Assembly: GCA_034423215.1 (NCBI GenBank)
Contig: DAOUIY010000060.1
Span: forward strand, 11,305 to 75,304
Direction: 5' to 3'
Length of the DNA stretch: 64,000 nucleotides
Origin: Dehalococcoidia bacterium
GTDB lineage: Bacteria > Chloroflexota > Dehalococcoidia > Lucifugimonadales > UBA3495
Both the position numbers and the translations under genes were made by a program. Below the pieces are notes generated by a model, which was given only the letters and a program-made list of their open reading frames with translations, did not search any database and was not told the DNA's origin. Below are positions 10,514-31,006 of the stretch, piece after piece (positions within the stretch are counted from its first letter, which is position 1; the number at the start of each line of letters is the position of its first letter).

Positions 10514-10614
10514 GGGAAATGACCTCTGGGGTTGGCGGTTATGGGTTGGCGGCTGGCGATTAGAGAAATTCTACGCGGTTGCGCATTTCTTCCGGGGATA
10601 ATACCTGGCAGGCC

Positions 10615-12935: not shown

Positions 12936-13664
12936 ATGAACCTTCAACAAGCCATGCAGCAACTGGAAGAATTGGGCACCGCCCAGAACCGCAAGATTTA
13001 CGCACGCCACGGCGTCGGCGATGCCATGTTTGGCGTCAGCTTTGCCAACCAGAACAAGCTGGCCAAGACCATCAAGCGCAATCACGATTTGGCCCTGGAG
13101 CTTTGGGCCACCGCCAACCACGACGCCCGCATCCTGGCCACCATGGTTGCCGACCCGGGCCAGGCCGACGATGCTCTGCTGGAGGCCTGGGCTAACGACC
13201 TGGACAGCTACGTCATCACCGACGCTTTTTCCGGCTTTGTCGGCAAGACGGCCCTGGCACAGCCCAAGGCCGAGGCATGGACCGGTTCCCATGGGGAATG
13301 GCCGGGCCGCGCCGGCTGGCACCTGGTGGCCCACCTGGCCATGAAGGACCAGGACCTCCCCGACGGCTACTTCACCGCTCACCTGCAAACCATCGAGGGG
13401 GAGATTCACTCCCGCAAGAACCGCGTCCGCGACGCCATGAACAATGCGCTCATATCCATAGGCATCCGCAACGATGCGCTGGAGCAGTTGGCCCTCGCCG
13501 CCGCCGCCCGTATCGGCAAGGTCGAGGTTGACCACGGTCAGACCGGCTGCAAAACTCCCGACGCTGCCGACTACATCCGCCGCACCCTGGCCCGCCGCCA
13601 GCAGAAGGCTCAAAAAGCTGCCGAGAAGGCCGCGGAAAAGGCAGCGGCAGCAGCGAAGAAATAG
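12936..13664 (+). CDS. DNA alkylation repair enzyme (AlkD/YhaZ-like HEAT-repeat protein)
   Basis: MNLQQAMQQLEELGTAQNRKIYARHGVGDAMFGVSFANQNKLAKTIKRNHDLALELWATANHDARILA is the typical N-terminus of this family. Low-complexity KAAEKAAEKAAAAAKK tail. Confidence 0.7.
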   Translation: MNLQQAMQQLEELGTAQNRKIYARHGVGDAMFGVSFANQNKLAKTIKRNHDLALELWATANHDARILATMVADPGQADDALLEAWANDLDSYVITDAFSGFVGKTALAQPKAEAWTGSHGEWPGRAGWHLVAHLAMKDQDLPDGYFTAHLQTIEGEIHSRKNRVRDAMNNALISIGIRNDALEQLALAAAARIGKVEVDHGQTGCKTPDAADYIRRTLARRQQKAQKAAEKAAEKAAAAAKK

Positions 13665-13667
13665 CTC

Positions 13668-14318
13668 CTACTTTTGGAAAAGGTAGGCTTCCGCTTCCAT
13701 CGCCGGCTTGTACCTGGCTCGGCTGGGTGGGCGACCCGTGTCTGCTGCCACCATATCCGCCGTGATGCAGGCGCCGCCCTCCAGCCTGAAGTAATCTGCC
13801 AGTTCCTCTTCAGACCTTGCCAGCCGAAGAGTCTCTTTCTCAAAGGCTCCAATCAGCCGGTAGTCGGGATCGGTAAAGGCTCGGCGCGCATCATAGTGCT
13901 CGTCGTTAGCCAGCAGCAGGCCGCCCGGCCGTAGAAAGCCCTTGGCTGCCAGCGATACAAGCCCGGCATTGAGAGAAATCAGCAAGTCAAAGGACGCGGG
14001 CGGCTCGGCATCGAATCCCTCGTAGTCCTGCTCGTAGCACTGTATCTCGGCCTCTTCCGGGTAGCTCTTCCGGGCGTCAATATAGCCAAGAAGTTCGGCA
14101 TCGGACAGCGCCCGGCCAATGCCCTTCAGGGAATCCACGTAACAGACCGATGGGAATACCAGCGAGGGCGTAATGTGCAGGTAACTGCCGGGATAAAGCG
14201 CCCGCCTGCATCCAAACGCATCCCGAATCTGTTGGAAAACCCGTAGCAGGTTAGGCTGTCGCCCCGACTGCTCCCCGTATCTGGCCAGGTAGGTTTCCAG
14301 CGCCTGGTGGTTTCTCAT
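13668..14318 (-). CDS. hypothetical protein, possibly SAM-dependent methyltransferase fold
   Basis: Started at ATG 14318 (MRNHQALETYL) because ORF-track residues 1-67 are encoded by family E/A repeats. LLISLNAGLVSLAAKGFLRPGGLLLAND is a weak methyltransferase-like motif only. Confidence 0.4.
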   Translation of the reverse strand: MRNHQALETYLARYGEQSGRQPNLLRVFQQIRDAFGCRRALYPGSYLHITPSLVFPSVCYVDSLKGIGRALSDAELLGYIDARKSYPEEAEIQCYEQDYEGFDAEPPASFDLLISLNAGLVSLAAKGFLRPGGLLLANDEHYDARRAFTDPDYRLIGAFEKETLRLARSEEELADYFRLEGGACITADMVAADTGRPPSRARYKPAMEAEAYLFQK

Positions 14319-14346
14319 TGGCCTTCGCTTCCAGGATCCCCGAGGC

Positions 14347-14545
14347 CTGGGCAAACGCATTCTAAATGTGGAATAGTCCGTCGTTCCCGCGAAGGCGGGA
14401 GACCTTGACCGGTTGTAGTCGCGGTTCCCCCTGCGCAGCAATGACGGTTGGCTGACATTCCCGCTCAACCTGGGCTTGTCGAAGGGCCGCCCCCGCTCAT
14501 GGTGAGCTTGTCGAACCATCAGCGGACTTTCAGCTTATCCGTCAT
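14347..14545 (+). repeat. composite of family E (left part) and rearranged family A repeats
   Basis: gggcaaacgcattctaaatgtggaatagtccgtcgttcccgcgaaggcggga... followed by ccgctcaacctgggcttgtcgaagggccgcc..ctcatggtgagcttgtcgaacc. Confidence 0.6.
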
Positions 14546-14671
14546 TCCTATGGCTATGTCCCAATAATCTCTTACCCAAATGGTGATACTGGACCGCGGC
14601 TAATCCCTCGTAAACCGGGCGTCAAAAACCAGTCGTCGAGAACCGGCGCCAGAAACCGGGCGGCTGTTCGC

Positions 14672-16030
14672 CTATCTATAGGGCCTCTTCAAAGCGTCCG
14701 GCGGGTTGGACTGGCCCAGGTAGTTATCGCCCCAGCAGACTACTACGCCGTCCGACCGCAGGGCGCAGGCGTGAAGCCCGCCCGCGCTGATGGCCACAAA
14801 CCCGCTGCGTTCCGGCGGCTCCAGGTCCCGCGCGCTTCCCAGTCCCCAGCAAATGGCGGTGCTGTCGGGCCGAATGCCGCAGCTGAATTCGTTGCCGGCC
14901 GCCACGTCCACCATGCGGACACCCTCGGGCGGCGTGGATTGTCCGGCCAGGTCGCTCCCCCAGCAGTCCACCAGGCCGTCCTCCCGCAGCCCGCAGGTAT
15001 GCCTGTCCCCGCTGTCTATCTTCAGGTAGTTTGCCCCCTCGGGGACATTTTTCTGGCCGTAGTTGTTGCGGCCCCAGCAGACAGCGCTGCCGTCCTCCCT
15101 CAGTCCGCAACTGAATTCATCGCCCGCGGTCACTGCCGCAAAGGTCTCGTCCAGGGGAGCCTCCGTCTGGCCCCGGTCATCGTTGCCCCAGCAGGCCGCC
15201 ACCCCGTCAGGTTTAATTCCGCAGATGTGCTGCTTTCCGGCGGTGATGGACTCCAGCCTCAGGCTGCGGTCCACCTGCCGGGTGCCCAGCCGGTCGCGAC
15301 CCCAGCAGAAGGTAACGCCCTCCTTCCCCGGGTCGGCCTGTATGCCGCAGGAAAAATCGCTGCCGGCGCTCACGTCTGAGAAGGTGACCCCCACGGGCAC
15401 GCTCAGCTGCAAATTGATGTCGCTTCCCCAGCATATCGCCGAACCGTCCGACTTCAGCACGCAGCTGTGCGCCCCGCCGCTGTCTATCCGAACTATGGTC
15501 ACCGGCCCCGGCGTAGGCTCCGGTGGAGTCGTGGGTATCGGCGTAGGTATAGCCGTGGGAATGGCCGTGGGTACTGGCGTGGGTACTGGCGTGGGTACTG
15601 GCGTCGGCGTGGAAATCGCTGTAGCAACCGGGGCCGGCGTAGCCGTAGAGGCCGGTGTGGCGACCGGCGCCGGTATCGCTGTGGGTTGCGCCACCACCAC
15701 CGGTTCCTGGGTAGGTTCCTCAGTGGGTTCTTCTGTGGGTTCCTCCGCCGGTTCTTCCGCCGGCTCTTCAGTAGCCTCCTCGGTTGCCTGCGCCGTCTGG
15801 CTGCTCACCGCCGCCGCCACCGCCGCGTCTATGGTCGCCTGAATGTTGGGCGTAGGTTCCGCCGTCGGCGCCGGCGTGGACGTCGGGGCGGGCGGGTCAG
15901 TCGGAACCGGCTGTCCGGTGTCGCAGGCGGCGAGCAACAGAAGGCCCATCAGGGAAAGGGAAACAACAAGCAGCGCTCTGCCCAGGGATTGTACCCCGGA
16001 GCGGGTGGTGAAGGTCTTGGCGTAGTGCAA
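14672..16030 (-). CDS. secreted lipoprotein with Pro/Thr-rich linker and seven RCC1-like repeats
   Basis: Signal plus lipobox LLLLAAC; long PTPVPTPVPT linker. Repeated xCWGxxxxGQ units: ICWGSD, FCWGRD, ACWGND, VCWGRNNYGQ, DCWGSDLAGQ, ICWG, VCWGDNYLGQ. Confidence 0.75.
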   Translation of the reverse strand: MHYAKTFTTRSGVQSLGRALLVVSLSLMGLLLLAACDTGQPVPTDPPAPTSTPAPTAEPTPNIQATIDAAVAAAVSSQTAQATEEATEEPAEEPAEEPTEEPTEEPTQEPVVVAQPTAIPAPVATPASTATPAPVATAISTPTPVPTPVPTPVPTAIPTAIPTPIPTTPPEPTPGPVTIVRIDSGGAHSCVLKSDGSAICWGSDINLQLSVPVGVTFSDVSAGSDFSCGIQADPGKEGVTFCWGRDRLGTRQVDRSLRLESITAGKQHICGIKPDGVAACWGNDDRGQTEAPLDETFAAVTAGDEFSCGLREDGSAVCWGRNNYGQKNVPEGANYLKIDSGDRHTCGLREDGLVDCWGSDLAGQSTPPEGVRMVDVAAGNEFSCGIRPDSTAICWGLGSARDLEPPERSGFVAISAGGLHACALRSDGVVVCWGDNYLGQSNPPDALKRPYR

Positions 16031-16340
16031 AGTGGGTTACTCTCCAGCGAAAATTCCGGACCAGCAAGTAAAGTCCAGGTAGATAGGCTATAGGTTATGT
16101 AAAGGATTGGCAAGTATGGAGACCTGCAATGCGGAGGAGAAATTAAAGCGACCGGCGCCAGGCGCTGTATTAGGAAGCTATCTCAAAAGTCCCTTCCCCC
16201 TTGACGGGGAAGGCCAGAATAGGGGTGACGGATAATGCAATGCTAACGCCTGTAGCAAATGCGAAGTCCAATAACCGTCTTGAGACAGTCCCTAAGTAGT
16301 CCGGCGGGGCCAGGCGGGACCTGTCTGGTAGCTCCGGCTC

Positions 16341-17648
16341 TCAGTCCAGGAAGCGCGTAAATACCTGGTTGGCTACCAGGTAGGCCGATTCGTGCAGCCG
16401 TATCAACGTATCCCGCCTTACCAGCAGCCCCAGATCCAGCAGTTCGGCAATCTGCGGCTCGTACCGGGCCGCCAGATCGGCCCCCGTCCGTCCTGAAGCC
16501 TCTGCCAGGTCCAGCCCGTCCAGCAGCCTCAGTCCCAGGAACATGGTCTCCGCCATAGCCAGGTCGTCGCCTATCTGCTCGTACCCGCCTACCGGTCCCG
16601 CCGAGTCCAGCCACCGGCCGTCAATAGACGCAATCGGCCCGCTTACCTTGTCGGCCCACGCCTTGGCCGCTTCTATGTATCCCCGGGGAGAGTCCATGTC
16701 CCAGAACCGGTAGCCGCCCAGGGAGGAATGGGACCCCGGCCCGACGCCCAGGTAGGGCAGGTTCCGCCAGTAGGCCAGGTTGTGCTGCGATGCCAGCCCG
16801 ATGGGGGATTCAGGCCCGGGCTTCGACCAGTTGGATATCTCGTAATGGTGGTAGCCCCGCTCTCCCAGCAATGCGCGGGCGTATTGGTACATATCCGCCG
16901 CCAGGTCCGCGTCGGGATGCGGGACTTCCCCCCGTTCCACCCACCGATGCAGCGGAGTGCCCTCCTCTACCGTCAGGGCGTACAGCGAAATGTGGGCCGG
17001 TTCCAGGTCGGCCAGCCTCTGCAGCGTGTCCTGCCACTGCTCCAGCGACTGCCGCGGCAGCCCGTAAATCAGGTCCAGGTTGACGTTGTCGAAACCCGCC
17101 TCTCGCAGCGTGCGGTAGGCGGCCATTGCCCCGTCGGCATCGTGCCGGCGGCCCAGCAGGTTCAGCAGGTCGTTGTCCAGCGACTGCACCCCGACGCTTA
17201 CCCGGTTGATTCCCTGCTTCCGCAGGCCGGCTGCCCTTTCCGGCGTAAGGTCGCCCGGGTTGGCCTCCACCGTAACCTCCGCATCGGCCCGAAGGTCAAA
17301 GGCTTGGCCCACCGCCGCCATTATCCCGCCCAGCGCGCCGTCGGGCAGGTACGAAGGTGTCCCCCCGCCGAAGAACACCGTATTGACCGGCGGAGCGTCC
17401 AGCGCCCGTCCCCACGCCCGCACCTCGGCCTCCAGCGCGGCAACAAAGGGCGACATCAGGCCCTCAATGCCCTGGTAGGTGTTGAAGTCGCAATAGGGGC
17501 ACTTGGTCTGGCAGAAGGGGACGTGGATATAAAGGGATATTCCGCTGTCCTGCAGGGCAGCCACTTCATGTCGGGCAGTGGTAGTCACTTCGCTGTCACC
17601 CTGGGTTTGACCGCTTTGCATTGATGGGTAAACCGGGGGTCCGCTCAT
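16341..17648 (-). CDS. hemW: radical SAM heme chaperone / coproporphyrinogen oxidase-like HemW
   Basis: LYIHVPFCQTKCPYCDF radical-SAM CxxxCxxC and a HemN_C-like tail. Start uncertain: ATG 17648 lies inside a family-A repeat, and an in-frame GTG at 17588 is an alternative. Confidence 0.8.
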   Translation of the reverse strand: MSGPPVYPSMQSGQTQGDSEVTTTARHEVAALQDSGISLYIHVPFCQTKCPYCDFNTYQGIEGLMSPFVAALEAEVRAWGRALDAPPVNTVFFGGGTPSYLPDGALGGIMAAVGQAFDLRADAEVTVEANPGDLTPERAAGLRKQGINRVSVGVQSLDNDLLNLLGRRHDADGAMAAYRTLREAGFDNVNLDLIYGLPRQSLEQWQDTLQRLADLEPAHISLYALTVEEGTPLHRWVERGEVPHPDADLAADMYQYARALLGERGYHHYEISNWSKPGPESPIGLASQHNLAYWRNLPYLGVGPGSHSSLGGYRFWDMDSPRGYIEAAKAWADKVSGPIASIDGRWLDSAGPVGGYEQIGDDLAMAETMFLGLRLLDGLDLAEASGRTGADLAARYEPQIAELLDLGLLVRRDTLIRLHESAYLVANQVFTRFLD

Positions 17649-18064: not shown

Positions 18065-18584
18065 AACGTAGGTGTAACCTACAGTTGATTATAGCCCGGA
18101 GAGAAGGGGTTGGATAGGGTATAGGCGACAGCCCAATCGCATCAACAGCTTGTCATAACATACGCAAGGTTCTTCCACCGGAAATAAACGTCGCCCTGAG
18201 CTTGCCGAAGGACCCCACGCAGTGGTTCCGCTTTTCCTGTACCGTAGGGGCGCACGGCCGTGCGCCCCTACCCAGGCCCCACCAAATTCGTCCTGAGCGT
18301 CTTGTCCTCAAAGCGGGCATACTATATCCACTGGAACGGAAATGCGTATCCCATTTTTTGGCGCTTACGGCGGAGCGGGTAGCAGCGGCGCGTCATCCCC
18401 ATCCCCATCTTCTCCAACCCCCGGGCCGGATATAGAATAGCCGTAGGGAATATGAAGCCTGAAGCGCGCGCCATGCAGCGCCCCGAAAGGATAGCCTAAT
18501 ATGCTGCCCCGGGTTTTCAGCAACCTAGCCACATTGCTTGCGAATCAATCGGCCGGCCGGACGGGCTGGCAGGAAGCGCGCCGC

Positions 18585-20156
18585 ATGAAAGCAATCACCC
18601 TCGCAGTGTTCGTTATCTTGCTCACGGCGTGCGCCGACTTGCCGCCAACACCCATGCCTGCCCCTGTTCCCACGTCAGCCATCTCCCCAACCGTTGCGCC
18701 GATACCCACGCCCGTACCTGCCCCGACGCCGGCTATCTCCCCAACCGTCGCGCCTACACCCACGCCCGTCCCCGCTGAGACGCCGCCTATCACCCCAACC
18801 ATCGAGCCATCTCCCACGCCTGCCAGGGCGCCGGCGCCGTCTATTACCCCTACCGTCGCGCCGACACCCGCACTTGCCCCGTCACCCGCACCGGCTGTCA
18901 CCCTAACGGCCGCGCCAACTCCCACACCGGCGCCCCCGACGGCAACACCCACGCCCACCCAGGCGCCAAAACCGGCGCCGCCAACCGAGGCCGACGCCTA
19001 TGCCGAGTTGTCGCGCCTGCTGCCCTGGTACCATCACCCGTCCTTCCCCGGGGCCGCTATCCCCATCGTTGAGGTGTGGCTGCGCGATGCTGCTTTCGGG
19101 CGCGACCTGGCCCAGGCCAATTGGATTGCCGACGGCATCAAGCGCCTGGAAAACGACCCCATCTACGGGCTTGGCCTGCTGTACGATTACGATCCCGCTC
19201 TTGCCCGAAAGCTGCTCGCCTACTCCGCAGAAGAGCCCCTGCAGGACCGAAACACCATGTTCCTGGGCGCGCTGTGGTCACTGATGACCTACGACGCCGA
19301 CAAGTTCGAACTGCTGATTGCCCAGCCCTGGTTCGCGGATGGTCTGGATGCGGAGGAGCGCGCCTTCGTCGTCGCCATTGAGAAAATCACCGGCGTTGAC
19401 GTCCTGTACACGGACCTGCTCACTTCGCCCCGCCATGCCAGCGTCCAGGCGATTACCCTGCCCCGGGCCGGGGATGTCACGATATGGGCCTTCTCCAACC
19501 GGCCGCTGGATGGCGAATTCCTGGAGGCAGCCGCCCGGGGCGTGCGCGGCGCAGAGGCGTTGATGGGCGCGCCCTTCCCATCTTCCGACATCATCATCCT
19601 GTCGCTGACCCTTGACGACTGCGCCGGCGGCCTCTGCGGCGGGGCCAATTTCGTGGACTCCCTTGTCCTGGTTGCCCAGGCCGGGCTGCCCTTCGGGGAC
19701 AAAACCCTCTACCACGAAATCGCTCACTTTTACCTGACCGCCGAGTTTGGCCCCTTCTGGCTGTACGAAGGCGGCGCCAGCTTCGCCGCGTCGTACACCG
19801 CCGCACTCCCGGACGTGGAGCTAATGCCGGAACCGCTTGACTTGCAGTATTGCCAGGAGCAGGGCGTCCCCAATCTGCACACGCTCAACGACCTGGCCCA
19901 TCCCGACCCCGTCGCGCAGCAGACCTGCGGGTACATCCTGGGCGAATACTTCCTCACCGTCCTGTACAACATCCTGGGCGAGCAAGCCTTCTCGGCGGCG
20001 CTGCGCGAACTGCACGAACTGTACCTGGCATTTGATTACTACCCGACGGAGGAAAGGGTCTATCAAGCATTCCTGGGGCAGGCCCCGCCCGGGCGCACGG
20101 CAGCCTTCAACGACGCCTGGCGCCGCTACCACGGCGGCCCCTTCGTCCCACCCTGA
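18585..20156 (+). CDS. lipoprotein with Pro/Thr-rich linker and MA-clan zinc metallopeptidase-like domain
   Basis: Started at ATG 18585 ([16 protein letters not shown] lipobox, AGGAAG upstream). HEIAHF (HExxH) followed by WLYEGGASF, resembling the gluzincin third-ligand motif. Confidence 0.65.
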
Positions 20157-20306
20157 GCGCCCCGCGCTCCCGCAACGTCGCCCCTCCCGCGAAAGGCGGC
20201 GGTCATTTGGTCCGCCCTTCAGTCATTTGGTCCGCCCTTATCGAGGCCCTTGTAAAAGCCCTCGTCAAAAATGTGGGTTCTTTCCAATCCCGTCTTGAGG
20301 ATCCCT

Positions 20307-20370
20307 GCTGGATGGTAGCCGCTGGACGGTAGCCGCTGGACGGTAGCCGCTGGATGGTAGCTGCTGGAGC
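20307..20370. repeat. 14-bp tandem repeat (gctggayggtagcc x ~4.5)
   Basis: Read directly: gctggatggtagcc gctggacggtagcc gctggacggtagcc gctggatggtagct gctgga. Confidence 0.85.
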
Positions 20371-20426
20371 CGGAGCTTCATTCAACAACCCTGCCCACCT
20401 CGGGAAAGTCTCGAATCACCAATCCC

Positions 20427-20558
20427 CAGGGCAATCGCATTCTAAATTTGGAGAGTCCGTCGTTTCCGCGGAGGCGGGAACCTCGAATCTGGCAGGTAAT
20501 GTACCAGGCCCCCCCTTAACCTTCGGGAATCCGGCCAGGTGGGAGAACGCTATTGCCC
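20427..20558 (+). repeat. interspersed repeat, family E
   Basis: cagggcaatcgcattctaaatttggagagtccgtcgtttccgcggaggcgggaacctcgaa...cccttaaccttcgggaatccggccaggtgggagaacgctattgccc. Colinear with 29954-30096. Confidence 0.8.
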
Positions 20559-20762
20559 ACACGCCCTGGGTGTCGTGGTGGAATACTAAAGTGAAGCTAT
20601 TGTATATTGTTGCATTGGATGACGAGACAATTCCCGCAAAGTGAAAAAGGCCAAGAGGAAATTGACTCTGAACTTAAGGTAATTCCGGCAGCCGTCGGTC
20701 TTGCCCTGATTATTCATCGAGCCATTGGAGACTTACGTCTAGATTAAGATTCAGTCGTCGAA

Positions 20763-21584
20763 GTGGCAACGGGAGGAATGATGCCCACATTTGAAGAAGG
20801 ATTTTCGGCTGCCGAGAGCGCTGCCGACTCGGTGCTGAATGCGCTAACCGAGGCAACACGGATAGCCCGTCAACTCCGTAAGGCCAGCCAGGACGGAAAC
20901 ATAGCAGCGATTAAGCGCCTGAACGAAAGGCTGGAAACGTCAGCCAACGTCATTGGACAGGCGGTTTCCAACACCTCTCGCGCCTGGCCTTTCAGTGACG
21001 AGGAAGAGCGGCCATACCTGGAGCAGGAATACAGCGCCGAACTGAGGAGCGAGGCCGAAACACGGGGCGTCCAAATGTTCGAGCGCGACGGCCGGTTAAT
21101 CGCCCATCCCCTCGTAGTGAGAGTGCTGCCCGGAGAGCGGGCGGTACGCATTGACCGGAAACGGACCGCCTCCATACGGCCTTCAAAGGTAGTTGCCGAC
21201 CTGGAAAAGCTGCAGAAGAGCCCGGCCCGCACCAACCTGCAGCAGTTTCTTGAGAGACTGTATGTAGTTTACCTGGAACTGGCTGAGCGAGATACTGCAG
21301 ACCGGCTGAAGTTAGGCGATACCGGCCAGGTCGTTCGCCTGGAACGTATTTACAACTTGTCCACCTTGCTGCTTGGAAGCGGGCGGGATTACACCCGCCT
21401 GGACTTTGCCAAGGACCTCTACGCTTTGCAGGAAAGCGGCATCCGGGAGGTTCGGGACGGCCCTCGGGTGTCTTTCCCTGCTTCCACGGGAACCAGGAAC
21501 CCGCGAGGGGTAATTTCCTTCGTTGACCCTGATGGGGAGACCGTTCTGTTCTACGGCATCCAGTTCACGGGAGTTAGGCGATGA
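20763..21584 (+). CDS. hypothetical protein, gene 1 of five-gene SNF2/ATPase operon
   Basis: 273-aa ORF (GTG 20763; in-frame ATGs at 20778/20781 after GGGAGG). ATGA overlap with the next gene. No motif recognised. Confidence 0.6.
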   Translation: MATGGMMPTFEEGFSAAESAADSVLNALTEATRIARQLRKASQDGNIAAIKRLNERLETSANVIGQAVSNTSRAWPFSDEEERPYLEQEYSAELRSEAETRGVQMFERDGRLIAHPLVVRVLPGERAVRIDRKRTASIRPSKVVADLEKLQKSPARTNLQQFLERLYVVYLELAERDTADRLKLGDTGQVVRLERIYNLSTLLLGSGRDYTRLDFAKDLYALQESGIREVRDGPRVSFPASTGTRNPRGVISFVDPDGETVLFYGIQFTGVRR

Positions 21585-22555
21585 ACAATATCCTTTCCGT
21601 TCAAGAGTGGCTGAATATTGTCAGGTCAGAGTACTTGGACGGGTTTATCAGCGAGGGAGGCGCGTCGGTAAAGTTCGCCGTACCTCAAGAGCCTGGGCTG
21701 GCGCCTTCGCTAAGAGCCCGATTCGCGGAGGTTGCCACCAGTCTGGGCTACCTGGTCGTGGATGTTGACGCCGGCCAGACCCGAGTTCACATGTTCCAGG
21801 ACTTTTTCTTCCGAATTGCCGAACAGGTTGACTGGCGGTTATCGGCCAGGCAAGTGGTCCTCAGCCAGGCCGGTGAACTGGGATATCGGACGGACGCCGT
21901 GGATTCCCAAGCCGAGACACCTGTGTTGAAGACTCTCAGCGAGGTCAGTAACCTGAGCGAGAGTTTTATAGTCCAGGACCTGCGTCCTCTCATAGAGGAA
22001 GCTGTCTATCGCAACTCAAGCATGTCGCGAGATTTTCGCGCCGCCATGACGCATCTCTGCCTGGCTGAAATGGGGGCGGGCGGGCAGAATCGTGATGAAA
22101 CACCGCTCCTGGAATGGCTGACCGGCGCCAACCGTCGAGTCGGCAACGTCCGACGCTATGGAATTTACAACAGCATTGTCCGCACCAATGCCAGGCACTT
22201 CCTCGAATCCTTGCTTTACTGGGTAAGGTTCGTGGGCTATGCAGGAACCTGTGTATTGCTGGACAACAGTCGCGTAGCGCTGCGGGCCAATCCGCGGGAT
22301 GGCGGGCGTTTTTACTCCAGGGCCGCGGCAATGGACCACTACGAGGTTCTGAGGGAACTGATTGACGGAGCAGATCGCTTGGACGGAATGTTGATGGTAG
22401 TGTTGTGTGATGAAAACTCACTCAGTGAGGACCGAAAAGGCATTCCCATTTATCAGGCCCTTTGGACCAGAATTGCCGATGAAGTCCGTTCCCGAACCCA
22501 GGCCAACCCTATGGCTACCCTGGTCCGTCTATCCGACGGAACCTTGATGGAGTAA
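21581..22555 (+). CDS. hypothetical protein, apparently degenerate P-loop ATPase paralogue (gene 2)
   Basis: 324 aa. Walker-A-equivalent reads FISEGGASVKF and Walker-B-equivalent CVLLDNSR (no GK[ST], no acidic residue). Overall layout parallels gene 3. Confidence 0.55.
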   Translation: MNNILSVQEWLNIVRSEYLDGFISEGGASVKFAVPQEPGLAPSLRARFAEVATSLGYLVVDVDAGQTRVHMFQDFFFRIAEQVDWRLSARQVVLSQAGELGYRTDAVDSQAETPVLKTLSEVSNLSESFIVQDLRPLIEEAVYRNSSMSRDFRAAMTHLCLAEMGAGGQNRDETPLLEWLTGANRRVGNVRRYGIYNSIVRTNARHFLESLLYWVRFVGYAGTCVLLDNSRVALRANPRDGGRFYSRAAAMDHYEVLRELIDGADRLDGMLMVVLCDENSLSEDRKGIPIYQALWTRIADEVRSRTQANPMATLVRLSDGTLME

Positions 22556-22560
22556 ACCGA

Positions 22561-23844
22561 ATGGTGGAACCCTCAACCAGAACAATGCTTAACAACCGGC
22601 GAGCGCTGGAGGCCCTGCGAAATGGCGTACCTAACGGCGACGCGGTAACCTTCCTCGGTTGCAATCAACCTGCCGTGGAGCAGACCTTCAGCGCCATGCT
22701 TGACCGGCTTGCCAACGACGGGAACCAACCCGACGGCAGCCAGGGAATGCTGGTGGCCGGCGACTTCGGCAGCGGCAAGTCTCACCTGCTGGGTTACCTG
22801 GAAAAACAAGCCCTTTCCAGGAACTTCGTTTGCAGTCGGGTAGTAATCAGCAAGGAAACCCCCCTGTTCGACATGGACAAGGTCTTCCGGGCGGTGGTGG
22901 AGAACGGCAAGGCGCCGGGCGTTACCGGCCAGCTTGTAGAGGAAATTACCCAGAAGCTGGACTACAACTCGCCGAGTTACGCTGAGTTCTTCCAGTGGGC
23001 CAACCGGGAGGACAACGGTCTGCACCGGATCTTGCCGGCCACCCTGCTGGTGCACGAAAGGGACAATGACCCGGACCTGCTGAACCGGATTAACTGGTTC
23101 TGGTCGGGCGAGCGCATTGACCTGAAACCGGTCCGCGACGGGCTGCGGCATCTGGGCCTACTCCAGGCCTACCCCTTTCGCGCCCCTGTATCCCGCGATA
23201 TGCCTCCGCAAAAGCTCCGGTTCATTCTCGAACTCGTCAAGGCCGCCGGCTATAGCGGCTGGGTAGTCCTGCTGGACGAAATCGAACTGGTAGCCAACTA
23301 CAGTGTGCTGCAACGAGCCCGCTCTTACGCCGAACTGGCCCGCTGGATGGGCCAAACCCCGGAGGAGAAGTATCCGGGGTTGGTGGTAGCAGGCACCATG
23401 GCCGTGGATTTACCGGAGGACGTCTTGGACAGCAAAGAGGACCGGGACAAGGCTGTGCCGCGCTTGCGGGCCAGGGGACGGGAGCCGGACCTGCTGACCG
23501 CAGCCCGGGCCGAGGCCGGTATGCGCCTTTTGGAGCGGGGCGTGCAAAACCTGGCGGAGCCTGATGAGGAAATGCTATTGAACCTCTACCAACAGCTTAA
23601 GGCCATCCATTCCGAGGCTTACGGTTGGGACGCCCCCGAAATAAACCACGGCATTGGCCGCGGCATACCGGCCAGAATCCGCCGCTACGTCCGCCGGTGG
23701 ATTAACGAGTGGGACCTGCGGCGGCTGTACCCCGACACTGAACCCGACATAGAGGAGACCGAGTTGACCTTCAGCTACGAGGAGGACCCGACGTTGGAAC
23801 AGGCCCACTCGGAAGATAACGGCTCCAGCGCTGCCAGGGAGTAA
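22561..23844 (+). CDS. P-loop ATPase, BrxD/DUF2791-like (gene 3)
   Basis: N-terminal RRALEALRNGVPNGDAV, Walker A GDFGSGKSH, Walker B GWVVLLDEIELV. Family assignment is from memory of DUF2791/BrxD consensus and is unverified. Confidence 0.65.
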   Translation: MVEPSTRTMLNNRRALEALRNGVPNGDAVTFLGCNQPAVEQTFSAMLDRLANDGNQPDGSQGMLVAGDFGSGKSHLLGYLEKQALSRNFVCSRVVISKETPLFDMDKVFRAVVENGKAPGVTGQLVEEITQKLDYNSPSYAEFFQWANREDNGLHRILPATLLVHERDNDPDLLNRINWFWSGERIDLKPVRDGLRHLGLLQAYPFRAPVSRDMPPQKLRFILELVKAAGYSGWVVLLDEIELVANYSVLQRARSYAELARWMGQTPEEKYPGLVVAGTMAVDLPEDVLDSKEDRDKAVPRLRARGREPDLLTAARAEAGMRLLERGVQNLAEPDEEMLLNLYQQLKAIHSEAYGWDAPEINHGIGRGIPARIRRYVRRWINEWDLRRLYPDTEPDIEETELTFSYEEDPTLEQAHSEDNGSSAARE

Positions 23845-23852
23845 TCGCTGCT

Positions 23853-24350
23853 TTGCTCCTGCAATTTCAGAACCCTGCCGAAGAGCAGCCTGCTGCGTCC
23901 CTCGCCTACATCCGCTTTTTCGCGGAGGAAGAAGGGAATGGTGTCCGGGCTGCCATGTTCGTCGTCAACGGCCACGGGGAGCCGTTGGAGTTCTGCTTTA
24001 CGCGGGTGGACTTGCCCTCCGGCCCACTGTGGGGAACCGAAGCGGCGTACCGCCGGGCTGCCGCCAACCTCGCTCGCGCCCTGTTTGATGCGGTCGAACA
24101 CTGCCCGGACATGGCCTTGGTCCTGGCAGAAGAGGCGCCACCCGACTTGCTCGCTGAAAACCTGGCATCTCAATTTCCCGTTGGTCTGGTTGGCAGCGCA
24201 GACGACCGGCCGGTTCGTTGGCTTGGGGCAACCCCGGATGAAGATTCTCCTCTGGCCGGCCTGTTGCAGCTATTGGCGTCCCGCCGTCGCCTGCTGGAAC
24301 CCTTTGACCGTGCAGCCCTGGGGCTGAAGGAGGCCTACGCCCACCGATGA
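23853..24350 (+). CDS. hypothetical protein (gene 4)
   Basis: 165-aa ORF with TTG start, 8 nt after the gene 3 stop. ATGA overlap with the SNF2 gene. No motif recognised. Confidence 0.5.
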   Translation: MLLQFQNPAEEQPAASLAYIRFFAEEEGNGVRAAMFVVNGHGEPLEFCFTRVDLPSGPLWGTEAAYRRAAANLARALFDAVEHCPDMALVLAEEAPPDLLAENLASQFPVGLVGSADDRPVRWLGATPDEDSPLAGLLQLLASRRRLLEPFDRAALGLKEAYAHR

Positions 24351-26110
24351 TGCTGCGGGACTTGCTGCATAGGCTGAAAGTTCTACCCTTGGGTCGTTAC
24401 CGCCGCCAGGAAGGTTACGACAGCACGGCGATACGAGAATCGCCTGCTCCGTACACCACCGACGCCCCGGTTCATCAACCCATTGACGTTCAACCCGAAC
24501 CCGTAGCGTGGCGTCCGGTTGACCCCATGGGAGAACCGGAAACGGTAAGGACGTTCATATTCGATGGCCCCGTTCCGGCGGACGGCAACGCCGCAACCCG
24601 GCAGCGCGCGTCGTCACCCTCCGCACGGCCCCGCCAGACCACGGGGCCATCCCCGGAAAGCCTGTTGTTACGATTGCGACGGGCTTTGGCGTCGCCCCAC
24701 TTACCCCTGCTGCCCTCGCCCGTTCCAGGCGACGATGGCCCTGGAAAATTGATGCCCTTTCAAATGGAGGGTGTAAAGGCTCTTCTGGAGAGCCGGCAGA
24801 TTCTGCTGGCCGACGATATGGGCCTGGGCAAGACCTTGCAGGTAATTGTGGCCCTGCGGATCCTCTTCCTGAGGAGCGAAATAGAGTCGGCCCTGGTGGT
24901 GGCCCCGGCCAGCGTCCTGGACCAGTGGCGGCGCGAGTTGCTCAAGTGGGCTCCAGACCTTAGGGCCATGGTAATCCGCGGCTCCGTGGCCGACCGGGGC
25001 TGGCAGTGGACTACCCCGGTCCACGTGGCCCTGGTGAGTTACGAAACCCTGCGGTCCGACGTTGGCGATAACCCTGTATCTCCGGCAGGAAGCAAGACCT
25101 GGGACGTAGTGGTCGCCGACGAAGCCCAGCGCATCAAGAACCGCAATTCCACCAGCGATTCTGTGAAAGCTCTGAAGCGGGTTCGGTCCTGGGCGCTGAC
25201 CGGTACGCCGGTCGAGAATGACGAAGAGGAACTCGCCTCCATCATGGAGTTTGTGGACCATGAGGAGGGCGAAGGGCAAAAGAGGTACTCCGCTGGCCTG
25301 GCGTTGAGACAGCGCCACAGGGAGGTGCAGCTGCGTCGGAAAAAGGGGGACGTGCTGGAGGATCTGCCCCCCAAGATAGTTTCCAGGATTCCCGTGGAAC
25401 TGGGACCGGCGCAACGGCGGAGCTACGACCGGGCTGAACGGGAGGGCATCGTCCACCTTCGGGAACTGGGGCAGGAGGTCCGGGTGCAGCATGTCCTGGA
25501 GCTTATTACCCGCCTGAAGCAGATATGCAACGCCGAGCCCGAAACCGGGGAGTCCGTCAAGTTTGATGAAATCCGCGCCAGAATGGAAACCCTGGCGGCA
25601 GAAGGTAACCGGGCCCTGGTATTTTCCCAGTACCGGAGGCAGGGCTTCGGCGTGGAAGCGGTGGCCCATGCTCTTAGGGAGTTTCGACCTCTTACCTTCA
25701 CCGGCGCCCAGTCGCCTGAGGAGCGTCGGGACATCATCAACCGCTTCAGGCGGGACGAGGATCATAAGGTGCTGGTGGTATCCCTCCGCGCTGGCGGGGT
25801 AGGCCTCAACCTGCAGGAAGCCTCGTATGTCTTCCACCTCGACCGGTGGTGGAATCCCGCCGTGGAGAGGCAGGCCGAGGACCGCAGCCACCGGTACGGC
25901 CAGACCGTGCCGGTCCACGTCTTCAAGTATTCCTGCATCAATACCATCGAAGAACGGATTGACCGTATCCTCGAACGCAAGCAGGAACTCTTCGACGAAC
26001 TGGTGGACGATGTTTCCATTGACCTTCATTCGGCTCTTACTACGAGGGAACTGTTCGGCCTCTTTGGGTTGGAGTCCCTCGCTGGCGCGGCCGGCGGCTC
26101 CTCCGGCTGA
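24347..26110 (+). CDS. SNF2-family DNA-dependent ATPase/helicase (gene 5)
   Basis: Motif I DDMGLGKT, II DEAQRIKN, III LTGTPVEN, V SLRAGGVGLNLQ, VI WWNPAVERQAEDRSHRYGQ. The first ~140 aa form a Pro/Arg/Ser-rich N-terminus. Confidence 0.9.
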   Translation: MMLRDLLHRLKVLPLGRYRRQEGYDSTAIRESPAPYTTDAPVHQPIDVQPEPVAWRPVDPMGEPETVRTFIFDGPVPADGNAATRQRASSPSARPRQTTGPSPESLLLRLRRALASPHLPLLPSPVPGDDGPGKLMPFQMEGVKALLESRQILLADDMGLGKTLQVIVALRILFLRSEIESALVVAPASVLDQWRRELLKWAPDLRAMVIRGSVADRGWQWTTPVHVALVSYETLRSDVGDNPVSPAGSKTWDVVVADEAQRIKNRNSTSDSVKALKRVRSWALTGTPVENDEEELASIMEFVDHEEGEGQKRYSAGLALRQRHREVQLRRKKGDVLEDLPPKIVSRIPVELGPAQRRSYDRAEREGIVHLRELGQEVRVQHVLELITRLKQICNAEPETGESVKFDEIRARMETLAAEGNRALVFSQYRRQGFGVEAVAHALREFRPLTFTGAQSPEERRDIINRFRRDEDHKVLVVSLRAGGVGLNLQEASYVFHLDRWWNPAVERQAEDRSHRYGQTVPVHVFKYSCINTIEERIDRILERKQELFDELVDDVSIDLHSALTTRELFGLFGLESLAGAAGGSSG

Positions 26111-26169
26111 CCTGGGTTCCAGTGAAATTGGTGAAGATACCCGCCGTGGCAGGATGAAAGGAGAATGCT

Positions 26170-26325
26170 AGTAGTTTGACCACTTTGCATTGATGGGTAA
26201 ACCGGGAGTCCGCTCATGGTGAGCCTGTCGAACCATCAAACTGTCAAACTGCGAATGGGCGGCCCTTCGGCAGGCTCAGGGTGAGCGGAAATACTATCCA
26301 TCATTTCAAATAAGTTGAACCACAA
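26170..26325 (-). repeat. interspersed repeat, family A (full length)
   Basis: agtagtttgaccactttgcattgatgggtaaaccgggagtccgctcatggtgagcctgtcgaaccatc...ggcggcccttcggcaggctcagggtgagcgg. Confidence 0.85.
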
Positions 26326-26508
26326 GTAGTCCGACCATTTTGAAATGATGGGTGAAATTGCTTTTCTCCGTCGTTCCGGCGAAGACCGGAACCCAGGAGT
26401 CCTGAAGGTAAGGAACCATGTCCGGCGCCAACCTTCCTGGATTCTGGCCTGCGCCAGAATGACGAGTTTCGATAGTTACCCGTCATTCCAAAGTGGTTGA
26501 ACCACAAG
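26326..26508 (+). repeat. interspersed ~185-bp repeat, family C
   Basis: gtagtccgaccattttgaaatgatgg...ccgtcgttccggcgaagaccggaacccag...ggcctgcgccagaatgacg...ccaaagtggttgaacc. Copies at 34349, 41595 and 41788. Confidence 0.8.
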
Positions 26509-26730
26509 CCGTTTCAAAATCAGCAAACAGGGTATAAGCTACTGACCGAAGGGACAGTATGGGGCCGCATGATGGAGCAGGAATTGAGCGATGCCCAATG
26601 GGAACTGATACGGCCCCGGTTGCACAACTTTAGGCGGCTGGTTGTCCGGTATGGAAGAAAAGCCCATGTCTGTTTCGGCTTCGTCCTGCTGGCCTTCGCA
26701 ATCTTGCTCACCAACCGAGTCTTGAATTAG
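26497..26730 (+). pseudogene. IS5-family transposase remnant (N-terminal ~25 aa fused to C-terminal ~30 aa)
   Basis: MMEQELSDAQWELIRPRL is a typical IS5/IS4-type N-terminus. RRLVVRYGRKAHVCFGFVLLAFAILL is a typical C-terminal R-x-x-x-RYE-K...L motif. The catalytic DDE core is absent. Confidence 0.55.
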
Positions 26731-27113
26731 CTTCTGGCCCCATTCCCGGGCAATCGCTTCTTAACCTACGCTGTAAACCTGAGCCGAAAGTCATGCCGCC
26801 CTCAGTCCTTCGGCTTGGCTCAAGATAAACTTTGCCGAAGGGCTTGAAATCCTGCCCCATAGCCCGGTTACGCGCCCGAAAGTCGGTTAGTGGGATGGTG
26901 TTCAGGTTCTGCACTCCGTTCAGTACGACAGTTATGGCCGTTCAAGACGACATTTCATTAAGACGCGATGGCCCTGGACCGATTCCCGGGACGGCATCTA
27001 TCTGGCCCCTACCTGTGCTAGAATTGGGGACAAGCACACAAGGCGATAGTGTCGCGATTCGCACTGGTCGCTTTAATCGCCAAAAGCTCTGACTTTCAGC
27101 AGGAGAGACACTC

Positions 27114-27668
27114 ATGCCAAGACTGACGCCTATAACCAAGCGAGAGCAGGTGAGCGGAGACGCTTTAACAGCCTTCGACGCCATCATAGAGTCCAGGAAC
27201 GCTATCAACGGGCCTCATTCGATGATGATGTATGCGCCGGAAGTTGCCCGTTGTTCCACGGCCCTCAGCGACTCCCTGCGCTTCGGTGGCAACCTGTCCG
27301 ACCATGACACTGAACTGGCGATAATTACCGCCGCCCGCCACTGGGACTGCGAATATGTATGGGCCTCCCATTCCGCTGAGGCGTTGCGGGCGGGGGCCCG
27401 GCCCGAGGCGGTGGAGATAATCGCCACGGGGGGCAGCCTGGACGGTCTCACCAGGGAAGAGGCGATAATCGTGCGCTACGGACGGGAGTTGATGGACGAC
27501 CACCAGGTCTCCCAGGAGACTTTTGATGCGGCCCTGGCGCACTTTGGCGAGGCCAATACCATCGTCCTGGGAGCGCTGATGGGCTACTACTCGTTCATCA
27601 GTTGCACCCTACTGGGAGTCGACATGCGGCCGCCCGAAGGCTCCCCCGTCTTGCCGAAACGGGCATAG
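27114..27668 (+). CDS. carboxymuconolactone decarboxylase (AhpD-like) family protein
   Basis: DHDTELAIITAARHWDCEYVWASHSAEALRAG matches the CMD-family core. 184 aa. Confidence 0.7.
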   Translation: MPRLTPITKREQVSGDALTAFDAIIESRNAINGPHSMMMYAPEVARCSTALSDSLRFGGNLSDHDTELAIITAARHWDCEYVWASHSAEALRAGARPEAVEIIATGGSLDGLTREEAIIVRYGRELMDDHQVSQETFDAALAHFGEANTIVLGALMGYYSFISCTLLGVDMRPPEGSPVLPKRA

Positions 27669-28530: not shown

Positions 28531-29730
28531 ATGCCCTCTGCCGTTGACCAGGAGATTAGAGAGCTGATCCGGAAGAACGGGCGAATCACCTTCGCCCAGT
28601 TCATGCAGGTCTGTCTCTACTCCCCCCGCGGCGGCTTCTACTCCTCCCGCGGCAGCGGCATCAACTCCCACTTCGGCACATCGCCAGCCGCTCATCCGGC
28701 CTTTGGCGCCCTCGTCGCGCGACAGTTGGAACAGATGTGGCATCTTCTCGGCAACCCGTCCATTTTTTCCTTGATTGAAGTGGGCGCCGGCGATGGCCTC
28801 CTGGCCCGGTCCATCGTGGATTCCTGCCAGCGAACGGCGCCCCGGCTTGCCCGTGCCCTCAACTACGTCGCCGCCGACTACCAGCCCGGCCGGTTCCCGT
28901 CGCCGGGCACCCCCTTTGACCGGCCCGGCGGTTCGGAAGATGCCATGCCCCCCGGCCCGCGCCACGCAGCTCCAGGCGTTCAGCGGGTCAAGGCCGCCGG
29001 ACTCGGGGCCTTCCGCAATGTTGAAGGCTGCATCCTGTGCAACGAGTTGATAGACAACTTCCCCGTCCACCGCTTCGCCATGCAGGACGGACGAGTCAGG
29101 GAAGTCTTCGTCACCCTGGACGGGGAAAACCTGGTGGAAGTCCTCGACGAGCCGTCCTCCCCGCGCATCGAGGAGCGGCTTGCCGGCCTGGCCCTGCCCT
29201 TGCCCGACGGTTACTGCGGCGAGGTAAACTTGGCCGTCCCGTTGCCCGACGGTTACCGCGGCGAGGTAAACTTGGCAATGGAAGACTGGACCTGCCAGCT
29301 TTCTACGGCACTGCAGCGGGGCTTTGTCCTCACCATTGACTACGGAGCCCTGGCCTCCGACCTCTACTCCCCCGCCAACTCCGGCGGCGCCATGGTGTGC
29401 TACCGGCAGCATCGCGTCAGCGACGACCCTTACCGTCATCCGGGGCAGCAGGACATCACCTGCCTGGTGGACTTCACATCCCTGATGCGGCTGGGAGAGC
29501 GGCACGGCCTTCAGACCGTGGGGTTTGCGCCGCAAAGCCGGTTCCTGCAGAACCTGGGCTTCTCAGCCTTCCTTGCCGACCTCCCGCACCAGGGCTTGTC
29601 CGCCGCCCGCGCCGAGTTGGAACGCATGGCGTTGATGGCCCTGGTGGACACCGACCAGTACGGCGATTTCCAGGTGCTGGCCCAGGCTAAGGGAGTTGAC
29701 CTGGACCAACCGCTCGTGGGCTTTCAGTAA
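28531..29730 (+). CDS. SAM-dependent methyltransferase, DUF185/MidA/NDUFAF7-like
   Basis: ITFAQFMQVCLYSPRGGFYS...FGTSP...LIEVGAGDG...ILCNELIDNFPVH is the family signature. Contains an in-frame 42-bp duplication. Confidence 0.72.
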   Translation: MPSAVDQEIRELIRKNGRITFAQFMQVCLYSPRGGFYSSRGSGINSHFGTSPAAHPAFGALVARQLEQMWHLLGNPSIFSLIEVGAGDGLLARSIVDSCQRTAPRLARALNYVAADYQPGRFPSPGTPFDRPGGSEDAMPPGPRHAAPGVQRVKAAGLGAFRNVEGCILCNELIDNFPVHRFAMQDGRVREVFVTLDGENLVEVLDEPSSPRIEERLAGLALPLPDGYCGEVNLAVPLPDGYRGEVNLAMEDWTCQLSTALQRGFVLTIDYGALASDLYSPANSGGAMVCYRQHRVSDDPYRHPGQQDITCLVDFTSLMRLGERHGLQTVGFAPQSRFLQNLGFSAFLADLPHQGLSAARAELERMALMALVDTDQYGDFQVLAQAKGVDLDQPLVGFQ

Positions 29731-29953: not shown

Positions 29954-30096
29954 TGTATGCCCCCAGGTCAAACGCATTCTGAATTTTGGGAGAGTCCGTC
30001 GTTCCCTCGCAGGCGGGAACCTCGAACCTGGCAAGTAATGTATCAGGTCCCCCTTAACCTTCGGGAATCCGGCTAGGTGGGAGAATGCGTTTGCCC
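29954..30096 (+). repeat. interspersed repeat, family E
   Basis: caggtcaaacgcattctgaattttgggagagtccgtcgttccctcgcaggcgggaacctcgaacc...ggtgggagaatgcgtttgccc. Confidence 0.8.
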
Positions 30097-30804: not shown

Positions 30805-30847
30805 CCTTGTCCATATACTCCTTGCCTCCCAGCGGTTCAACCTTTTT

Positions 30848-30985
30848 GAAAAGACGGACAGTATTTCCGCTCACCCTGAGCCTGTCGAAGGGCCGCCCAT
30901 TGGCAGATTGACAATTTGATGGTTCGACAGGCTCACCACGAGCGGACCTCCGGTTTACCCATCAATGCAAAGTGGTCAAACTATT
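30848..30985 (+). repeat. interspersed repeat, family A (full length)
   Basis: ccgctcaccctgagcctgtcgaagggccgcccattggcagattgacaatttgatggttcgacaggctcaccacgagcgg...caatgcaaagtggtcaaact. Confidence 0.85.
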
Positions 30986-31006
30986 AGATTGCAAACCCCA
31001 TCCTTT

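Follow-up and report, generated by a model that had tools for sequence, protein, structure and literature searches.

Two validated defence systems, type 2 of the bacteriophage exclusion (BREX) systems and Shango, have an ATPase of the BrxD family as a conserved component. In BREX type 2, BrxD, which has been classed as an ORC/Cdc6-type AAA+ protein, and the Ski2/Lhr-like helicase BrxHI form a tightly linked dyad, and a role of BrxD as loader or activator of its helicase has been proposed; the SNF2 helicase BrxHII belongs to BREX type 3 (PMC12839542). The same work on BREX diversity covers BR systems centred on DUF499, which do not correspond to the gene set treated here, as well as BREX-related BR fusions of a helicase with a restriction endonuclease (PMC12839542). 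Shango is composed of a TerB protein (SngA), an ATPase (SngB) and a DEAD/DEAH helicase (SngC), and its anti-phage activity was demonstrated experimentally (10.1101/2022.11.11.516204). In the present study a cassette of five genes, here called g1 to g5, was analysed in a stretch of 64,000 nucleotides (referred to as the window) of contig DAOUIY010000060.1 from a metagenomic Dehalococcoidia bacterium, and its sequence features, relatives in other genomes and resemblance to described systems were compared. The unit is a universal trio of g1, g2 and g3, of which g2 and g3 are BrxD-family paralogues, combined with an optional and exchangeable module of g4 and the SNF2 helicase g5. By analogy with the systems named above, the cassette may be a nucleic-acid conflict system of two modules that are shuffled horizontally, with defence against phages or mobile elements as its most likely purpose, and to this reading a probability of roughly 0.5 is given.

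The five genes lie on the forward strand and are translationally coupled, thus forming one operon, as was established from the list of open reading frames (ORFs) and a base-by-base check of the junctions. This coupling had been described in an earlier annotation made from the sequence of the window (hereafter the original prediction), and all of its overlaps and gaps were recovered: ATGA overlaps join g1 to g2 (21581-21584) and g4 to g5 (24347-24350), and gaps of 5 nt (ACCGA, 22556-22560) and 8 nt (TCGCTGCT, 23845-23852) separate g2 from g3 and g3 from g4, respectively. The GTG start at position 20763 that had been chosen for g1, giving a product of 273 aa, was replaced by the ATG at 20781, because GGGAGG is located 4 nt upstream of it and the homologues have 267 aa and begin with M-P/S-T-F-E. 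The exact 267-aa sequence of g1 is also contained in a protein collection, and an independent gene call on the 209,914-bp metagenomic source scaffold yielded identical products of 267, 324, 427, 165 and 587 aa. The coordinates of all features are given in Table 1. No family was found by a Rfam scan of positions 19800-27300, and consensus scans for promoters and terminators between 20100 and 26600 gave results no better than those for shuffled sequence.

In order to place the cassette among related loci, a pattern-limited scan of 185,579 species-representative genomes was used, the counts of which are lower bounds. At least 65 loci with a patchy distribution were found. Most of them belong to metagenome-assembled genomes (MAGs) of Dehalococcoidia/SAR202, and the family occurs in eight or more phyla, with further carriers among Nitrospirales, Terriglobia, Tectimicrobiota, Binatia, Spirochaetia, Caldilineaceae, Armatimonadota and the gammaproteobacterium Ca. 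Spongiihabitans; the names of the MAGs suggest that many carriers are members of sponge or coral holobionts. Architectures were compared by a tblastn search with the five proteins in the 72 loci fetched first. Wherever the sequence was long enough the trio was present, and g4 together with g5 occurred in about 52 loci. With more than 50 independent loci sharing the gene order, chance is far from sufficient to explain the arrangement; it also follows that elsewhere, too, g1, g2 and g4 keep their synteny with the genes of the ATPases and of SNF2, in agreement with the original prediction. The view of a fixed five-gene set, in turn, had to be abandoned, since among the first 72 loci, as far as they have enough sequence, and in distant members the trio is universal while g4 and g5 are optional and swappable.

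The way in which the second module is varied can be seen from the individual loci listed in Table 1. In L076, the three genes upstream of the trio and coupled to it encode an 810-aa protein with a SEC-C motif and two proteins of 215 aa and 523 aa without assignment, and a DUF2786/DUF7168 protein additionally follows the trio and its helicase, so this operon may represent a larger related system. Within 10 kb of 12 trio-only loci, no shared extra partner was found beyond the synteny within Nitrospirales; the genes located 3′ of the trio in such loci are unrelated to each other (RND pump, Fur, ClpB, MFS transporter and glycogen synthase). In one trio-only locus from Dehalococcoidia (L046), a gene for a 1043-aa SNF2-like protein with 35% identity to g5 is located convergently just 3′ of g3 (14012-17143, minus strand) and may be an alternative partner. 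In L077, positions 11300-16804 encode a 687-aa protein with PLD/NgoFVII-like and P-loop parts, a NurA nuclease and an SMC/AAA_23-type ATPase, possibly a defence or repair cluster.

The two modules also differ in their evolutionary history. Identities between L012 and L033 are 0.72 for the trio and 0.89 for g4-g5, whereas those between L033 and L065 are 0.87 and 0.61, respectively, and the modules are therefore decoupled in both directions. A further comparison was possible for L020 and L045, which are collinear over 20 kb and lie on contigs binned in one MAG. Their nucleotide identity amounts to 95-98% in the flanks and 98-100% in g4-g5 but drops to 61-78% over precisely the extent of g1-g3, and the protein identity across g1-g3 (positions 10000-13000 of both loci) is 65-75%. 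Within a single locus, the trio seems to have undergone allelic replacement or to have diversified strongly. The possibility that L020 and L045 are two paralogous cassettes of one genome was considered and ruled out by the 20-kb collinearity; they represent either two haplotypes of a single locus or the result of a very recent large duplication.

The proteins were compared with PADLOC 2.0 (2023 release), NCBIfam 2026, Pfam 2025 and PHROGs. No model was matched at the level of the cassette, so the original statement that it corresponds to no named system holds, and memberships exist at the superfamily level only, namely to PF10923, to SNF2 and to the RNase H-like fold. With Pfam scores of 78.6 bits for g3 and 44.6 bits for g2 against a gathering threshold of 22.2, both ATPases are members of PF10923 (BrxC_BrxD), and the same annotation is carried by the orthologues in all loci that were looked up. 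The best PADLOC and NCBIfam matches of both proteins are BrxD, and PADLOC BrxD and SngB are their only matches to defence families. The scores against the BrxD equivalog NF033438 (68.7 bits for g3 and 41.9 bits for g2) stay below its cutoff of 350, and a phmmer search of g3 against the PDB gave no match. As originally noted, g3 has an intact Walker A motif (GDFGSGKSH, aa 67-75) and an intact Walker B motif (VVLLDEIE, aa 235-242, with DExE at aa 239-242); the patterns G-[DE]-F-G-x-G-K-S-H and D-E-x-E are invariant in 65 of 65 orthologues, and g3 is predicted to be the active subunit.

The g2 family, for which likewise 65 orthologues were compared, shows the conserved degenerate patterns x-G-G-[SA]-[SA]-[IV]-K-F and h-h-h-h-D-[ND]-S-R, the catalytic Glu being absent. 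A profile-profile alignment of g2 and g3 (E 2.6e-4, 202 columns) places K73-S-H-L-L of g3 opposite residues ~41-45 of g2, and GGASVKF of g2 is therefore probably strand beta-1, the true P-loop position being unconserved. The description of g2 as a dead paralogue was thus borne out as far as the degenerate PF10923 domain and the missing catalytic Glu are concerned, but the EGGASVKF sequence that had been taken for the former P-loop is probably not at that position. Judged from the sequences, the statement that g2 has neither a functional Walker A motif nor a catalytic Glu stands. Because its degeneracy is conserved family-wide and appears to be a fixed feature, g2 is predicted to be a pseudo-ATPase partner of g3.

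The membership in PF10923 and the best matches to BrxD would fit an orphan BREX accessory, i.e. a module of BrxD and a BrxH helicase that serves core genes elsewhere in the genome, all the more as a standalone PF10923 ATPase linked to a helicase of superfamily 2 (SF2) is what the cassette shares with the type 2 dyad. This explanation is largely refuted and retains next to no probability, as the scores for the equivalog are far below its cutoff and no PglZ, BrxC/PglY, PglX, PglW, ZorA/B or Drm core genes were found among the scanned ORFs of the window, nor were PglZ, BrxC, PglX or PglW seen among the annotated or scanned genes in the flanks of related loci. An ORF of the size of BrxC/PglY or PglX/BrxX (~1200 aa each) does not occur in the window, the largest one having 852 aa. 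In contrast to the type 2 dyad, the cassette contains two ATPase paralogues, one of them predicted to be dead, its helicase is SNF2 or XPB-like and not of the Ski2/Lhr-like type of BrxHI, PglW, PglX, PglY and PglZ are missing, and g1 and g4 have no BREX counterpart. The original conclusion that this is no recognisable BREX, DISARM or Zorya locus is confirmed by the absence of the defining components from the window; the link that it drew from BrxD-type ATPases and SNF2 helicases of the BrxHII type to BREX is right in outline, but the two belong to different types, BrxD with BrxHI to type 2 and BrxHII to type 3.

In the literature that was searched, no description of this gene set was found, PF10923 merely having been counted as a phage growth limitation (Pgl) gene. 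Horn et al. (2016) counted it in this way and reported that sponge metagenomes contain it and that seawater lacks it (PMC5099237), which is a further point in favour of a BREX origin. However, each copy of the cassette contributes two PF10923 genes; some of these hits in sponge metagenomes may belong to it, and the Pgl/BREX counts may then be overestimated.

The helicase g5 matches PF00176 (SNF2-rel_dom, 147 bits) and PF00271 (Helicase_C, 68 bits), and its closest solved structure is the Rad54-like SNF2 core of Sulfolobus (1z63, E 7e-55). All SNF2 motifs that had been ascribed to it are present, i.e. motifs I (GLGKT, aa 159), Ia (aa 187), II (DEAQ, aa 258), III (TGTP, aa 285), V (GGVGLN, aa 483) and VI (QAEDRSHRYGQ, aa 509). 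The N-terminus had been described as a Pro/Arg/Ser-rich stretch of about 140 aa; it comprises 135 aa, is rich in Pro (16%), Leu and Arg, and is not purely of low complexity, as it holds three conserved short motifs: a basic helix-like segment, 'V-T/R-x-h-h-h-D' and 'L..RLR.VLA.P...LLPGP.S.L.WPGELMPFQ'. These motifs are candidate docking peptides.

Among the PADLOC models, the core of g5 is matched best by ZorD (255 bits) and DpdE (205 bits), the ZorD match covering positions 443-885 of the 908 model positions only, i.e. the helicase core. In NCBIfam, g5 reaches 152 bits with the ZorD model (cutoff 1500) and 81 and 70 bits with two DrmD models (cutoffs 950 and 610). No match to PADLOC Zor models was obtained with g1 to g4, no ZorA, ZorB or ZorC was found among the flanks, and the other PADLOC Drm models did not match the cassette. 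Hence, what g5 shares with ZorD of Zorya type I, DpdE, DrmD and the BR helicases is a generic helicase core. ZorD, which PADLOC describes as a SWI2/SNF2 helicase with an Mrr-like nuclease, is a parallel to the pair of g4 and g5 and to their fusions, as are the BR fusions of a helicase with a restriction endonuclease (PMC12839542); the differences are that g4 is RNase H/EndoV-like and not of the Mrr/PD-(D/E)xK type and that the partner genes of these helicases are absent.

For g4, no match was obtained in Pfam, PADLOC, NCBIfam or PHROG, and its profile found nothing among PDB sequences at E<=10. The structural model (predicted local distance difference test (pLDDT) score of 79.3, built on an alignment of 12 sequences) gave Foldseek matches to Endonuclease V, the C-terminal half of UvrC, PIWI and RNase H with E-values of 1e-5 to 1e-3, a probability of ~1.0 and alignments spanning 110-180 columns; the 28 PDB matches at E<=1e-3 are all of RNase H fold with the exception of one of unknown function. 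Hence g4 models as an RNase H/EndoV/UvrC-C/PIWI-like fold. The original prediction, which could name no motif in g4, is thereby upheld for sequence families and amended for the fold, and its assertion that the operon contains no nuclease is no longer safe. The resemblance to Endonuclease V, the UvrC C-terminal half and PIWI consists in a superposition of folds; in contrast to these proteins g4 is much smaller, shows no sequence-level similarity to them and has no strictly conserved D-E-D-D/H set, the candidates being Glu residues that are lost in a few orthologues. These candidate carboxylates are E25 (E/D in 50 of 55 orthologues), E94 (54 of 55) and E149 (53 of 55), none of them invariant, which sit roughly at the topological positions expected for RNase H, and the strictly invariant residues are P44, F47, W123 and R153. 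From the model, a nuclease activity with non-canonical catalytic residues is possible.

With a median identity of 39% to the copy in the window, compared with 58-68% for the others, g4 is the fastest-evolving of the five proteins. It was detected only in loci having SNF2, and in two loci it is fused to the helicase in a single ORF (L064:13112-15259, 715 aa; L073:11103-13277, 724 aa). These Rosetta-stone fusions argue for a physical association of g4 with SNF2, and g4 behaves as an SNF2 accessory domain. The folds nearest to g4 are those of repair nucleases (EndoV, C-terminal half of UvrC), which speaks for the principal rival explanation, one of genome maintenance or DNA repair, in which an ORC/Cdc6-like ATPase pair with g1 as adaptor would bring an SNF2 translocase with an EndoV/UvrC-like nuclease domain to lesions, stalled forks or R-loops. 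Bacterial SNF2 proteins do include members outside defence, such as RapA, to which g5 has a weak match. Its further evidence is taken up below together with the genomic context.

No match of g1 was found in Pfam, PADLOC, NCBIfam or PHROG, its profile has no significant relative among PDB sequences, and a Foldseek comparison with PDB and BFVD yielded no structural neighbour of its model at E<=1e-3. The model (pLDDT 81.7) starts with a long helical hairpin (aa 4-68), after which the structure is mixed alpha/beta; the weak top Foldseek matches, SMC heads and coiled coils, reflect the helical hairpin only and were discarded. The earlier remark that g1 contains no nameable motif can hence be extended to its fold. 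A word-indexed search gave 327 close relatives and an exhaustive profile search 757 clusters at 50% identity, with E<=1e-10 for 527. Almost all of the clusters are standalone proteins of ~260 aa, and every named one is a 'hypothetical protein'.

The nature of g1 also bears on the comparison with Shango, which likewise combines a small accessory protein, an ATPase and an SF2 helicase in an equal logic of gene order. In a divergent Shango system, g1 would replace SngA, g2 and g3 would be a duplicated SngB, and an SNF2 or XPB-like helicase would replace SngC, the mechanism being that of Shango. Matches to PADLOC SngB were indeed obtained for g3 (33.7 bits, E 5e-9) and for the orthologues of L076 (E 1e-6 and 3.5e-5), but they are weaker than those to BrxD and lie mostly in the P-loop region, to which the best-scoring stretch of g3 is confined. 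Moreover, neither g1 (Pfam, PADLOC) nor the distant g1 of L076 matches TerB, g5 is an SNF2 protein for which SngC is not among the best 25 of 43 PADLOC matches, and Shango contains only one ATPase and nothing RNase H-like, whereas in the cassette the ATPase is duplicated into a predicted active/inactive pair, the helicase is of another family and an RNase H-like protein is added. A Shango variant is for these reasons considered improbable.

The neighbourhoods of 38 non-redundant five-gene loci were analysed for conserved context. Their 149 nearest genes belong to 105 Pfam families, and at least 18 of them encode a transposase, resolvase or integrase, the most frequent being DDE transposases, IS66, IstB, resolvases and integrases. 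Scattered flank genes include DNA methylases and AbiEii-like, Uma2, SspH and restriction-like genes, and ParE/Phd and SocA-type genes adjoin distant members. Since the neighbourhoods vary between genomes, homologues of the cassette are not confined to conserved housekeeping surroundings. The accessory status postulated in the original prediction is supported by this cross-genome comparison and not by the window's own genes, which are ordinary metabolic ones and do not form a defence island.

The enrichment of the flanks in DDE transposases, IS66, IS21 IstB, resolvases and integrases, together with MITE-like repeats on both sides of the cassette in the window, could indicate that the cassette is mobile-element machinery itself, with a TniB/IstB-like AAA+ pair for target selection or regulation and a helicase, and not cargo. 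Such a function is judged highly improbable, because no transposase or integrase family is consistently adjacent, inverted repeats bounding the cassette were searched for and none were found, in many loci the nearest 10 kb are free of mobile-element genes, and the repeats are abundant throughout the window.

A modular conflict system fits best due to the ATPase pair, the swappable helicase, the link of g4 to SNF2, the hyper-divergence of the trio and the lack of a conserved context, and the defence reading is suggested by the precedents, BREX type 2 and Shango, in which a BrxD-family ATPase is paired with an SF2 helicase. In such a system, the first module (g1, g2 and g3) would act as sensor and loader, with g2 and g3 as a hetero-oligomer and g1 as adaptor or sensor, and the second module (g4 and g5) as effector motor, one physical unit that may or may not have nuclease activity. 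A foreign cue, DNA or protein, would be recognised, upon which ATP-bound g3 would load or activate the SF2 motor on DNA, by analogy with BrxD and BrxHI and with ORC/Cdc6 loaders generally. The SNF2 motor would then translocate, and g4 would cut the target nucleic acid or hold it. A trio without a linked helicase would act alone or use an unlinked partner.

Several points weigh against this conflict-system reading. A defence function is plausible by analogy and is predicted here from sequence, and the g2-g3 heteromer and the role of g1 are purely conjectural. The comparison of L020 with L045 is one between two contigs of a single MAG, and the median identity of g1-g3 across the class (58-68%) is unusual for fast-evolving immune sensors. 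About one fifth of the loci have the trio without a helicase, so helicase loading is not the whole story, and a strictly invariant acidic triad is absent from g4. The cassette of the window sits among metabolic genes and not among defence genes, many other loci are likewise located among housekeeping genes, and no copy was found on PLSDB plasmids or INPHARED phages (tblastn with g1) or in IMG/VR (g1 profile).

Some of these points are the ones that speak for genome maintenance: the cassette is chromosomal and usually single-copy, often lies among housekeeping or metabolic genes, has good sequence conservation in the trio and was not found on plasmids, phages or viral contigs. In addition to the nearest folds of g4, this makes genome maintenance the main rival, with the BREX remnant, the mobile-element function and the Shango variant being less likely. 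It is nevertheless regarded as rather unlikely, as the occurrence is patchy (65 loci in the 185,579 species representatives of the pattern-limited scan), the flanks are rich in transposases with no conserved neighbourhood, and wherever family-level relatives of the ATPases have a known role, it is in defence. Moreover, the allelic replacement of the trio and the shuffling of modules are hard to reconcile with a housekeeping factor.

The window itself was characterised by a Pfam scan of the five cassette proteins and 19 other ORFs, including the largest. The neighbours are HemN, an RCC1-repeat protein, CMD, Methyltransf_28, thiolase, CoA-transferase, a histidine kinase and SelB; CoA-transferase, histidine kinase and SelB are the largest ORFs, and Methyltransf_28 (28531-29730) is the only methyltransferase nearby. 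The MITEs (miniature inverted-repeat transposable elements) that had been noted on both sides of the operon were confirmed as dispersed MITE-like repeats (Table 1). Core pieces of 29-60 nt of the upstream repeat, which resembles MITE or REP (repetitive extragenic palindromic) elements, occur at 10 or more other sites of the window. For each of the two downstream families the copy number within the window lies between several and more than 10, with copies among others at 30834-30987, 34194-34532, 41594-41978, 52656-52763, 45909-46026 and 1894-2026, and the genome is rich in MITE/REP-like elements. The ORF at 26497-26730, taken in the original prediction as an IS5 scar, had no Pfam match, and this label was not confirmed.

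The 14-nt tandem repeat 5′ of g1 may be regulatory or belong to a repeat element, and an exact 18-nt direct repeat (20202-20239) is located beside it. Two further observations concern the neighbouring genes. An ORF of 551 aa at 18501-20156 (plus strand) has a long Pro/Thr/Ala-rich N-terminal half, no Pfam match and the sequence H-E-I-A-H (HExxH) in its C-terminal half. It may be a zinc metallopeptidase, secreted or a lipoprotein, from a family not yet described. At 14672-16030 (minus strand), a protein of 452 aa with five RCC1 repeats and a PT-repeat linker is encoded; RCC1 is a eukaryote-like repeat, and such proteins are often reported in sponge symbionts.

Table 1. Features of the cassette and its surroundings in the window, and layout of individual related loci (positions in the window, except for L076, where they refer to that locus).
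Feature	Position	Strand	Description
g1	20781-21584	+	267 aa, signature protein; ATG start; stop overlaps g2 start (ATGA)
g2	21581-22555	+	324 aa; PF10923 (BrxC/BrxD) paralogue, predicted pseudo-ATPase
g3	22561-23844	+	427 aa; PF10923 BrxD-family (ORC/Cdc6-type AAA+) ATPase, predicted active subunit
g4	23853-24350	+	165 aa; TTG start; RNase H-like fold according to the model
g5	24347-26110	+	587 aa; SNF2
g5 N-terminal region (aa 1-135)	24347-24751	+	Pro/Arg/Leu-rich, variable in length
g5 SNF2 motor core (aa 136-587)	24752-26110	+	SNF2-rel_dom and Helicase_C
14-nt tandem repeat	20294-20368	.	CTGGAYGGTAGCCG, ~5 copies, in the 600-bp intergenic region 5′ of g1
MITE/REP-like dispersed repeat	20424-20558	.	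88%-identical copy at 29961-30096
Two overlapping dispersed repeat families	26168-26505	.	~155 bp and ~210 bp; directly 3′ of the operon
L073			trio, then SNF2 protein with g4 fused at its N-terminus
L078 (freshwater Chloroflexi contig)			trio, separate g4 and SNF2, i.e. five-gene layout
L076	3353-14117		trio overlapped by XPB/PbeA-like helicase; three coupled upstream genes
L075, L079			trio alone
L077			trio without adjacent helicase, beside PLD/NgoFVII-like gene, NurA and SMC-like ATPase

Defence-type modules of a BrxD-family ATPase and an SF2 helicase are a known theme; new are this arrangement and the families of g1 and g4. Two unannotated protein families are added, g1 without a fold relative and g4 as a cryptic RNase H-fold accessory of SNF2. 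The cassette offers a minimal self-contained setting of BrxD-family ATPases, with a fixed pair predicted to be active and inactive, the novel partner g1 and a helicase that was swapped in evolution, and due to this architecture the helicase-loader hypothesis is directly testable. Should the defence role fail, bacterial genome maintenance by an ORC-like protein that loads an SNF2-nuclease would still be of interest. More tentatively, the trio may be a widespread unannotated immune 'sensor-loader' with interchangeable SF2 motors and a rapidly exchanged specificity surface by which invaders are recognised. If so, it would be a defence system in its own right, whose motors are SNF2 with the RNase H-fold protein, XPB/PbeA-like or unlinked, and it would provide the first tractable model of the BrxD-family ATPases of BREX type 2 and Shango, whose task would be an asymmetric, ORC/Cdc6-like helicase loading at foreign DNA.

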